A stretch of DNA of 64,000 bases from an uncultured cyanobacterium (GTDB lineage Bacteria; Cyanobacteriota; Cyanobacteriia; Cyanobacteriales; Cyanobacteriaceae). Below are positions 56,973 through 60,033 of the stretch, one piece after another (within the stretch, counting starts at the first letter, position 1; every line of letters starts with the position of its first letter). The stretch covers positions 224,001 to 288,000 of the forward strand of contig CAVVOP010000008.1 of NCBI GenBank assembly GCA_963749915.1, in the 5' to 3' direction. The notes beneath the pieces are model-generated. The model had not been told where the DNA came from. It saw nothing but the letters and a program-made list of their open reading frames with translations, and made no database searches. The position numbers and the translations under genes are program-made.

Positions 56973-57887
56973 ATGCTGAGCAAAATCTGTGGTGTGATAG
57001 ACCAAGGGGATCTTCCACAAGCACCTTATAAAAACTTAGTGTCTGATTCTAAAAGTAGAGAAACAATTAAATTACCTTCAGATCTAATTTCTGAAAATTC
57101 TATTTTTGAATTAGAGGAACCAATAGATAAGCCTCTAAAAGGAATAGATAATTCTCCAAAAAACCGTCAAACAGTACGTATAAATGAGTTAGACGATTTA
57201 TTACATGGAGGCTTGTTGAGTGATACTTACGGAGTGGATCAAAATCACAGACCTGGTCATAAACCCCCTGGTGGTAATGCTTCATCACGCAGTAGTTATC
57301 CAATAGATTTTTTTACTGTTGCTCTTCACGAGATCGGCCATTCATTGGGTTTGTCACATGGGGATCCCAAGGATGGTAGAAAAGCTATTATGGATCCATT
57401 TTATAGTGGGCCAGAAACTGGTCTATATAAAAATGATAAACAAAGAATTAAGGCTTTATATAAAAATCTAAATGGTACAGGTAATCGCTGGAATGAAAAG
57501 AATGATCGAAATCCTGGCAATGGTGTTCTCGAGGTGACCTACAGTTTTATGCCTAATGGAACAAGATTAGATCAAGGAAGAAACAATTGGTATAAAAAGT
57601 TTAATGCTTTATTCCCAAGGAAAGAATGGTTAAATATTGTACAACGTGTATTTCAAGAATGGGAAGCCGCCATTGAGGAAGGCGGAATCAAAATAGATTT
57701 TATAAAGGTTTCGGATAATGGAGTACAATTTAACGCTCGAGGGAAAGGAAGTCAAGGAGACATTCGCATTGGCTCTCATCCTTTTGACGGACCATTAGGA
57801 GTATTAGCTCATGGTTACTATCCACCACCAAATGGGAATACAGCGGCCGGTGACGTTCATTTTGATTCATCGGAACACTGGGTTTAA
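56973..57887 (+). CDS. Matrixin (peptidase M10) family metalloprotease with permuted domain order
   Basis: HEIGHSLGLSH and the Met-turn AIMDPFY precede TYSF, DIRI, HPFDG..GVLAHGYYP and GDVHFD. Confidence 0.85.
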   Translation: MLSKICGVIDQGDLPQAPYKNLVSDSKSRETIKLPSDLISENSIFELEEPIDKPLKGIDNSPKNRQTVRINELDDLLHGGLLSDTYGVDQNHRPGHKPPGGNASSRSSYPIDFFTVALHEIGHSLGLSHGDPKDGRKAIMDPFYSGPETGLYKNDKQRIKALYKNLNGTGNRWNEKNDRNPGNGVLEVTYSFMPNGTRLDQGRNNWYKKFNALFPRKEWLNIVQRVFQEWEAAIEEGGIKIDFIKVSDNGVQFNARGKGSQGDIRIGSHPFDGPLGVLAHGYYPPPNGNTAAGDVHFDSSEHWV

Positions 57888-58225
57888 TCATCAAAATGAT
57901 CGATGGCGTTTATGGGAAAATGATTTAAATCGCTATAGCTACTGACTTTGTTTATATTGATTTTATCAGGAGAGCTTTACTTATGTCTCGAACTCCTCTT
58001 CCCTATCCTTGTCACAACACATAATTATTCAAATCCCTCGCAGTATTGAGTGGCATATTAAGTGGCAAACAGTGCATCATCTATGATCAGGAACAACAGC
58101 GGCCATGAGGGCGAGACTAACTAATGAGAGATGGAATTGGAACAACTTGGCACTCTATCCCACACTTCTTTGATACACGACCAGAAAAGCTAGTCTAACT
58201 TTTCACGGCATCTTTTTCGGTTGAC

Positions 58226-58267
58226 AGGTGTTAGGTGTTAGGGGTTGGGTGTTAGGATTAGGGATTG
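58226..58267 (+). repeat. Heptamer tandem array (AGGTGTT-like), mirrored at 58688-58718
   Basis: AGGTGTT AGGTGTT AGGGGTT GGGTGTT AGGATTA; complementary array CCCTATCACCCAACCCCTAACACCCAAACCCT after the ORF. Confidence 0.8.
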
Positions 58268-58315
58268 AGGATAAGCTTTAATAGTTGAACAGTCAAAAAA
58301 AACACTTAGAAACTG

Positions 58316-58681
58316 ATGGGAATACAATCCTATAGAGACTTAAAGGTTTGGCAAACAGGCATGGATTTAGCAGAAGAATGCTACTTAGTTACTCGCAATT
58401 TCCCCAAAGAAGAACTTTACGGGTTAATTTCTCAGATTCGTCGAGCATCAGCCTCTATTCCCGCCAATGTCGCTGAGGGGCATAGTCGAAAAACCCGAAA
58501 AGAATATATACAGTTTTTATACATAGCACAAGGCTCTCTTAAAGAATTAGAAACTCATCTTTTATTGTCGAAAAGGGTAAAGTTAGGAGAGGGGAAAGTC
58601 ATTGATTCTCTTTTAAATAGATGTGAATCCCTCGGAAGATTATTATCAGCATTGATTCGTGCCCTCGAAAACAAAAACTGA
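58316..58681 (+). CDS. Four-helix-bundle protein (23S rRNA intervening sequence protein / Avd-like family)
   Basis: SYRDLKVWQ, FPKEELYGL.SQIRRA..SIPAN.AEG, FL.IA.GS..ELETHL. Confidence 0.93.
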   Translation: MGIQSYRDLKVWQTGMDLAEECYLVTRNFPKEELYGLISQIRRASASIPANVAEGHSRKTRKEYIQFLYIAQGSLKELETHLLLSKRVKLGEGKVIDSLLNRCESLGRLLSALIRALENKN

Positions 58682-58770
58682 ATTTTCCCTATCACCCAAC
58701 CCCTAACACCCAAACCCTTTCTCAGGGAAAAGATACCGTGAAAAGTCAGAAAAGCTAGTGGGGCTCAATT

Positions 58771-60033
58771 ATGGATTTAATCATCATTACCCGTTTATTT
58801 ATAGCCTTAGTCTTAGGTTTAATTATTGGTTTAGAAAGAGGTTGGACTAGTCGAAAAACTCCCCCAGAATCAGGTAGTGGTGGTTTGAGAAATTTTGGCT
58901 TGGTGGGATTATTCGGTGGTGTAGCAGCTTTATTAGCAGAGCATTGGGGCAATGGTGTTCTGGCGGCTATTTTTTTAGGACTATCAATTTTGGTAAGTAC
59001 ATCTTATGTTTTGAGTGCACAAAAATCTCAGGATTATGGTAGTACTACAGAGCTAGCTTTACTGATTACTTTTATTTTAGGTGCTTTAGTTATCAATGGC
59101 TATGGTTTGGAGGCAATTGCCGTTGCAGTTATTGTTACTTGGTTATTAAAGTTAAAACCAGAAATTCATCAGATGCTCATTTGGCTCACCAAGCAAGAGT
59201 TAGTGGCAACCCTGCAACTATTATTATTATCCTTAGTTACTTTGCCTTTGCTTCCCAATCAAGATCTAGGACCTTGGCAAGCTCTTAATCCTAGAGCGAT
59301 AGGTCTTTTAGTTTTACTAATCATTAGTATTTCCTATGTAGGTTATTTCATCATTCGTCTTTGGCAAAATAAAGCAGGTATCTTGTTAGTAGGACTCTTA
59401 GGAGGATTAGCTTCTTCTACCGCTACAACTATTGCTTTAGCTCGCATTGCCAAACAAAAACAAGCCCCCATTAAACTTCTGGCTACGGCCATCGCTTTAG
59501 CGACGGGAACAATGGCTCCTCGTTTACTCTTAGTAATAGCAGTAATTAATTCTCAATTAGCAAATAAATTAGCTATTCCCTTAATAATCTTAGGATTTAT
59601 TCCCGTAATTATCGCTTTAATCTTAATTGGAAAAGGAATTGATCAAAAAACGACTAACATACCATTTCAACTCTTTAATCCTTTTGAAATTAGTATTGCA
59701 CTTCAATACTCTTTGATTCTGGTGATTCTCTCACTTCTAATAAAAGTTGGAGAACAATGGTTAGGAAATACCGGAATATATCTAGTTTCTGCCTTTTCCG
59801 GATTAGCAGATGTTGATGCGATCAGTATTTCCTTAGCTCGTATGACTAATCAAACCATCGCTTTTTCTGTGGCACAAATAAGTATTTTTCTGGCTGTAAC
59901 CATGAATATCATAGTTAAAATCTTTTTAACTAGATTTATCGGTGGCAAGGAATTATCTCGTTGGTGCGGAATTATTTTACTGGGCTCTCTTGTTCTCAGT
60001 GGTTTAACTATTTGGGGATTAAATATAATTTAA
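58771..60033 (+). CDS. MgtC/SapB family membrane protein with a DUF4010 domain
   Basis: GLIIGLER, GLRNF, GSTTE, LLPN, GGLASSTA, SGLADVDAI. Confidence 0.88.
   Translation: MDLIIITRLFIALVLGLIIGLERGWTSRKTPPESGSGGLRNFGLVGLFGGVAALLAEHWGNGVLAAIFLGLSILVSTSYVLSAQKSQDYGSTTELALLITFILGALVINGYGLEAIAVAVIVTWLLKLKPEIHQMLIWLTKQELVATLQLLLLSLVTLPLLPNQDLGPWQALNPRAIGLLVLLIISISYVGYFIIRLWQNKAGILLVGLLGGLASSTATTIALARIAKQKQAPIKLLATAIALATGTMAPRLLLVIAVINSQLANKLAIPLIILGFIPVIIALILIGKGIDQKTTNIPFQLFNPFEISIALQYSLILVILSLLIKVGEQWLGNTGIYLVSAFSGLADVDAISISLARMTNQTIAFSVAQISIFLAVTMNIIVKIFLTRFIGGKELSRWCGIILLGSLVLSGLTIWGLNII

Follow-up and report, generated by a model that had tools for sequence, protein, structure and literature searches.

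Mobile insertion cassettes (MICs), with MIC231 of Bacillus cereus (IS231 subgroup of the IS4 family) as their prototype, are described as units of about 700 bp to 3 kb (PMC6199540). Cyanobacteria carry the MITE Nezha, 130-170 bp in length, together with its partner ISNpu3 (PMC3184786). IS4-family elements are characterised by a DDE transposase with a YREK motif, duplications of about 10 bp and the absence of a frameshift in the transposase, with 8-9-bp duplications given for the IS50 subgroup (PMC2266710). ORF-bearing intervening sequences (IVS) of 23S rRNA genes, such as that encoding S23p in Coxiella burnetii, have a transposon remnant or a mobile element among their open hypotheses of origin, and the movement of IVS-type genes has been an open guess since that work (PMC4990558). 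The likeness of Avd and Xcc0516 (PDB 2GSC), which underlies the inference of RNA binding, is drawn from PMC10053308. Genes of the corresponding family PF05635 are common, occurring in 91 of 121 genomes of the cyanobacterial order considered here, and are without known function.

Here we describe a 555-bp element in the window, a 64,000-nt stretch of DNA from an uncultured cyanobacterium. The element is a mobile insertion cassette by the structural definition tested and works like one: it has two IS-type inverted repeats, encloses a passenger coding sequence and no transposase, and moves as a unit with target duplication (eight of 12 copies, three empty sites). At 555 bp it is smaller than the MICs described. 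With MIC231, as portrayed in that source, it shares the two IS4-family inverted repeats, the missing transposase, the passenger and the putative mobilisation in trans. It differs in lying under the size range reported there, in reaching 12 copies in one genome, in having Tn5/IS50-like CT- ends instead of the CAT- ends of IS231, and in carrying an IVS-type hairpin cassette as its passenger. Like Nezha as described, it is non-autonomous, cyanobacterial and known from filled and empty sites; unlike Nezha, it encodes a protein. The 166-bp MITEs that have the same ends as the element fall within the Nezha size range. The element is not a strict MITE, its interior being coding, with an open 121-aa frame under purifying selection relative to its relatives. 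With the Coxiella burnetii IVS it has in common the protein family and, in its predicted fold (z = -3.9, ends paired), a long terminal stem with the ORF in its loop. Unlike the IVS described, it lies outside rRNA, between a matrixin-like and an MgtC-like gene, and has IS ends with target duplications; by location it is not a 23S rRNA IVS. A literature search, in which subscription journals were thinly covered, returned no description of an IS-ended four-helix-bundle cassette.

Structure of the element and its insertion site

The features of the element are given in Table 1. The first-pass annotation had described a perfect 10-bp direct repeat, AAAAGCTAGT, around 22-bp terminal inverted repeats (TIRs), an interior without transposase, and an end about 20 bp before the start of the MgtC/SapB gene. 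All of these stand: the direct repeat is perfect, the only ORF of at least 60 aa inside the element is the 121-aa PF05635 gene, and the element stops 21 nt short of the ATG. The inverted repeat extends inward in register through the heptamer arrays, with 50 of the first 62 nt matching, and the arms form a 69-nt pair with 80% match. Both cassette ends are of the MITE 'ATCTTTT' type, in register. The element thus has an inner layer that was absent from the earlier account, in which mirror-image heptamer arrays enclose the gene, an IVS-like packaging.

Table 1. Coordinates of the element and adjoining features in the window
Feature	Position	Strand	Remarks
Mobile insertion cassette, whole element	58195..58749	+	555 bp; G000 has 12 full-length copies sharing these termini, L035 one more
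Target-site duplication, left copy, AAAAGCTAGT	58185..58194	.	present once at the X5 empty site
Target-site duplication, right copy, AAAAGCTAGT	58750..58759	.	
Left TIR, IS4-family type	58195..58216	+	first 19 nt equal the left end of the C20:161811 transposase element at 18 positions
Right TIR	58728..58749	-	complementary to the left TIR at 20/22
5' heptamer array, GGTGTTA/GGGGTTG type, left arm of the inner hairpin cassette	58226..58263	+	
3' heptamer array	58688..58718	-	mirrors the 5' array; equal distance to terminus
121-aa four-helix-bundle gene (23S rRNA IVS protein, PF05635/TIGR02436)	58316..58681	+	private Gly57Ser, base 58484
Host MgtC + DUF4010 gene, 420 aa	58771..60033	+	context, outside the element; 21 nt downstream

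The insertion, which according to the annotation may alter expression of the downstream gene, separates the mgtC-like gene from its upstream region by 565 bp that include a long stem; only the 21 nt directly before the start codon keep their place. No promoter-like site was found on the plus strand in 57850-58850; the scan gave three sites, all on the minus strand, against 2.4 expected. The MgtC/DUF4010 protein was not found with the window query in any of six same-genus genomes, and the target region (the gene at 58771-60033) may therefore itself have been acquired.

The surroundings of the element are rich in repeats. It was inserted at the edge of a diverged repeat (58089-58183) that recurs at 70-76% in at least six other loci of the same genome (G000). 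A stretch of 104 bp at 57927-58030 is skipped in the contigs of runs X1 and X5 and represents another insertion polymorphism, located 150 bp upstream of the 555-bp element; it overlaps a multi-copy repeat of about 56 bp (57995-58050) that terminates in an IS4-type end. Further upstream lies the matrixin-like ORF (56973-57887). In matrixins the HExxH zinc motif is normally preceded by another part of the domain; in this ORF, read by eye, the motif comes before that part. Pfam gives two stretches, and the ORF is possibly circularly permuted.

Copies, target duplications and empty sites

The genome contains 12 full-length copies with identical termini, and one decayed relative of 81% identity without the ends. 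Ten copies differ by one base from the window copy and one, of 558 bp, is frameshifted, so that 11 of the 12 frames are open. Perfect target duplications flank eight copies and are all different, six of 10 bp and two of 9 bp. The flanks of the remaining four are not reciprocal, and these copies are tentatively read as results of adjacent deletions or assembly effects. Four of the eight duplication-flanked copies split an ORF of at least 90 aa, which makes the element an active mutagen. One copy (L212, C21:70463) landed within an array of heptamer repeats.

Three empty sites were found. At the window locus, a contig of run X5 continues from window positions 58167-58181 directly into one target copy followed by the downstream gene; the preceding contig stops just beyond the left target, and depth over 58271-58697 is zero (37% of the run read). 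In run X1 this locus is filled, and depth rises from 4-7 on the flanks to about 67 within the element; this run may represent the source strain and was not counted as independent. Run X6 displays one further flank of the element. The second empty site is a single target copy at about 438.4 kb of contig C8, whose counterpart L035 is filled and has a 10-bp duplication. The contig of L035 (L268, G041:C132; 17.6 kb) is about 99% identical to G000, other G041 loci being about 70% identical, and is probably a misbinned or recently transferred piece of a near-identical strain. The third site involves the C34 copy: the repeat that harbours it has a paralogue on C31 without the element.

The near-identical copies, their distinct duplications and the empty sites bear out the earlier reading of a recently inserted non-autonomous transposon. 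Both the genome search for the TIR that had been proposed as a check (12 copies, eight with duplications, and a transposase element with matching ends) and the search for an empty site at the window locus gave the anticipated result. Among 40 relatives searched, the full element was not found; the sole trace is a decayed piece in G029 with the same end, the 3' end of the piece being equal to the 5' end of the 555-bp element. The flanks of the window site had no match in G041, and those of three other copies had no close one.

A candidate partner transposase and related MITEs

Ends like those of the cassette occur in G000 on two 166-bp MITEs, a 189-bp element, a 125-bp element and one 1502-bp element (C20:161811-163312) with an IS4-family transposase. 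The transposase scores 335 bits with NF033590 (cut-off 160), has a Tn5-type N-terminus (PF14706 and NF049926), and displays the YREK motif, Y-x2-R-x3-E-x6-K, in translation. A 1507-bp relative in Microcoleus (L434) has a 10-bp duplication. Several features speak against the C20 element: it is a single assembled copy without its own duplication, and its right end has only 13 nt in common with the cassette ends. Its transposase gene is also frameshifted after codon ~53, at odds with the IS4 hallmark of no frameshift; NCBIfam has a separate N-terminal model, IS4_FS_Nterm. Since the frameshift falls at the same site in all four diverged G041 relatives (75-76% DNA identity) and in three Microcoleus/Lyngbya copies, it is probably programmed; the conserved site is seen at loci L221, L263-L266 and L434. 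The transposase is a candidate enzyme. Its fit to the IS50 subgroup is partial, with agreement in the CT- start and the Tn5-type N-terminal domain and disagreement in positions 13-14 and the 9-10-bp duplications.

In the databases, same-size elements bearing both ends were sought through single-end patterns. The 166-bp MITE, bounded by 46 of 75 end matches (26 of these 46 with duplications of at least 8 bp), is widespread in cyanobacterial bins (L116-L206, L408-L479), with dozens of copies in one of them, and may be related to Nezha. None of 92 database matches of the cassette-type end leads into a transposase and many are 166-bp MITEs, which places the origin of the cassette ends on the MITE side of the family. 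The 125-bp element (C8:260338-260462) has the same ends and short repeat arms without a gene, and looks like a deletion derivative of an L341/L188-type unit. A broken IS4-type element (L481:1357-1581, C21:151383-152903) has, within its right end, the 5' part of another four-helix-bundle gene.

The four-helix-bundle protein

The 121-aa protein matches PF05635 at 131 bits (cut-off 33.8), as well as TIGR02436, and has a sequence match to the solved structure of Xcc0516 (PDB 2GSC; E 4e-21). Its similarity to Avd is weak: the Avd models score below their cut-offs (NF033474, 20.1 against 80; PF22296, 23.3 against 40). The protein belongs to the IVS-protein family, in line with the annotation, and lies outside the family cut-offs for the Avd of diversity-generating retroelements (DGRs). 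The resemblance to Avd and Xcc0516 as described (PMC10053308) consists in the 2GSC match and the weak Avd match; the differences are the low model scores and the DGR context, of which none was seen, the window neighbours not being reverse transcriptases and the neighbours of the other 11 copies being judged by eye.

The annotation had called the ORF intact. The frame is indeed open, and a working protein does not follow from it. In the window copy a private base at 58484 turns residue 57 from Gly to Ser. The Gly base is present in the ten copies that differ by one base, in L035 and in the X1, X6 and X7 contigs of the element, and Ser occurs at this position in none of 102 homologous motifs, where Gly is conserved. 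Compared with free relatives, the gene is under purifying selection (dN/dS 0.07-0.16; three of four comparisons computable), a signal that mostly reflects history before capture. By analogy with Avd and Xcc0516, we put at about even the chance that the protein forms a pentamer that binds the hairpin RNA of its own cassette, and that it would serve the cassette rather than the host.

The sister lineage G015, with IS701-like ends, sheds light on the role of the gene in movement. Its copies measure 539-870 bp, and a perfect 7-8-bp duplication is present at seven of 12 loci, in six of which the frame is shortened or disrupted (flanks read by eye). Copies with broken frames and duplications of their own imply that the gene is not needed in cis in that lineage. 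Judging from G015, the gene looks like a passenger, although in the lineage of the window element 11 of the 12 frames are open.

Transposon ends around other members of the family

We surveyed 109 of 320 PF05635 matches in 121 genomes of the order, chosen among the 150 listed; the sample leaves aside the 12 copies, the majority of the near-duplicates in G015 and some matches close to the ends of contigs, and 105 of the 109 have enough flank. Inverted arms, the IVS-like packaging, are present around 86 of the 105 homologues, against one of 56 XisI and DUF29 control genes. TIRs with an exact duplication bracket six of the 105, in five genomes (two being identical copies), and none of the 56 controls. 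The same bracket was found around one of 190 small ORFs in 3-kb loci, itself a four-helix gene, and around five of 400 ORFs drawn at random from G000, each belonging to a copy of the 555-bp element. Of the 79 nearest relatives, 70 have enough flank, and not one of these is bracketed. The excess of bracketed homologues over controls is suggestive only: even when end motifs selected post hoc are used (8/105), the Fisher test gives p = 0.051. The first-pass annotation had seen in the element a concrete route by which such genes become scattered, to be checked by a survey of flanks. The route is real, as the 12 copies demonstrate, and it is a minor one, with 99 of 105 homologues and all 70 nearest relatives unbracketed. 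Transposon carriage is a minority route for PF05635 genes, most of which sit in hairpin-armed cassettes.

The bracketing ends are of several types, their family names being taken from fragments of transposases that adjoin such ends in G000. The IS4-type end of the window element recurs on a distant gene (L341), a second IS4-type end is found in L344 and L290, IS701-like ends in L230 and L269, and ISL3 ends with 8-bp duplications in L005, L006 and L032; the ends of L343 and L347 are of a further type with no family assigned. The unit at L344 is nested within the ends of another element. In a quick tree the window protein groups in one clade (support 98) with the products of four genes that lack brackets and belong to Rivularia, Moorena, Hormoscilla and Pleurocapsa bins. 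With a subset of 33 proteins, a single clade of the eight bracketed genes is rejected (p-AU 2e-6), as is a single clade of the two genes with the same IS4 end. Capture by IS ends arose repeatedly on unrelated gene lineages.

Discussion

The boundaries of the element, its copy number, duplications and empty sites, together with a family-matched transposase with matching ends in the same genome, are direct observations, and the IS family of that transposase makes 10-bp duplications. The highly probable explanation is a two-layer element, an IVS-like cassette inside IS4-family ends that is moved in trans by a Tn5/IS50-like transposase with the gene as a passenger. The inner layer would be the four-helix-bundle gene between inverted heptamer arrays, its RNA pairing end to end, and the outer layer two IS4-family ends as in the widespread 166-bp cyanobacterial MITE. 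A DDE transposase of Tn5/IS50 type would excise the unit and insert it at a new site, creating a 9-10-bp duplication, cut-and-paste being the chemistry of the IS4 family. The enzyme would most likely be that of the 1.5-kb element on C20, and presumably this transposase itself did the work. The co-resident candidate is consistent with the mobilisation in trans suggested by the annotation. The gene would be dispensable in cis. The two ends of one type might have been acquired through end duplication or equally through inversion between the arms, the latter being suggested by ISL3-ended units that hold the gene in either orientation (L005 and L006).

A less probable reading, to which we still give some weight, is that the cassette itself is mobile, by RNA-based or recombinational means, and lands in MITEs or between IS ends that amplify it, with the protein aiding the first movement. 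The abundance of inverted arms among homologues compared with control genes, the capture on at least five unrelated gene lineages and the weak Avd similarity would fit such mobility, as would the two different IS ends of the ISL3-ended units, which are as expected from insertion into a mini-IS. The 555-bp element itself points away from it: both its ends are of the MITE type and not one of each, every recent junction lies at IS ends, and no cassette-free mini-element with these sub-terminal ends was found among the G000 ends or the 92 database matches; the Avd models also remain far under cut-off. Independent mobility of the cassette would explain its origin and is compatible with the two-layer explanation of the 12 recent jumps.

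It appears improbable that the protein is an active partner in transposition or benefits the host, and that the cassette is picked up repeatedly and reaches 12 copies, against two or three for its MITE cousins, for this reason. Repeated capture, the bracketing of six homologues and no XisI or DUF29 genes, and purifying selection all agree with this idea, but the enrichment is not significant, and copies with broken frames have moved in G015 and decayed ones are present in G029 and G000. A neutral 'safe landing pad' of dispensable, repeat-rich arms predicts the same pattern. Finally, an assembly error or segmental duplication with chance repeats, to which the draft state of the assembly (34 contigs) and the common right flank of the C19 and C25 copies might hint, has a negligible chance in view of eight different perfect duplications, the depth contrast in X1 and the further flank in X6, and is refuted by the three empty sites.

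Returning to the two-layer element, we consider tentatively that hairpin-armed cassettes form a selfish class prone to gaining IS ends. Their mirror-image arms might attract insertions and allow copying, homogenisation or flipping of the ends across the stem, so that transposases of unrelated families (IS4 at least twice, IS701-like and ISL3) would be recruited repeatedly as carriers; the 555-bp unit would then be seen in mid-burst.

The element is a small, complete and currently polymorphic vehicle that resides in one genome with a candidate enzyme, and thus both the jumping of the unit and the importance of the gene for it are testable by ordinary cloning. Most members of PF05635 are not carried by transposon ends. 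For this family, first known from inside ribosomal RNA genes, the element represents one real route of movement, not the main one.
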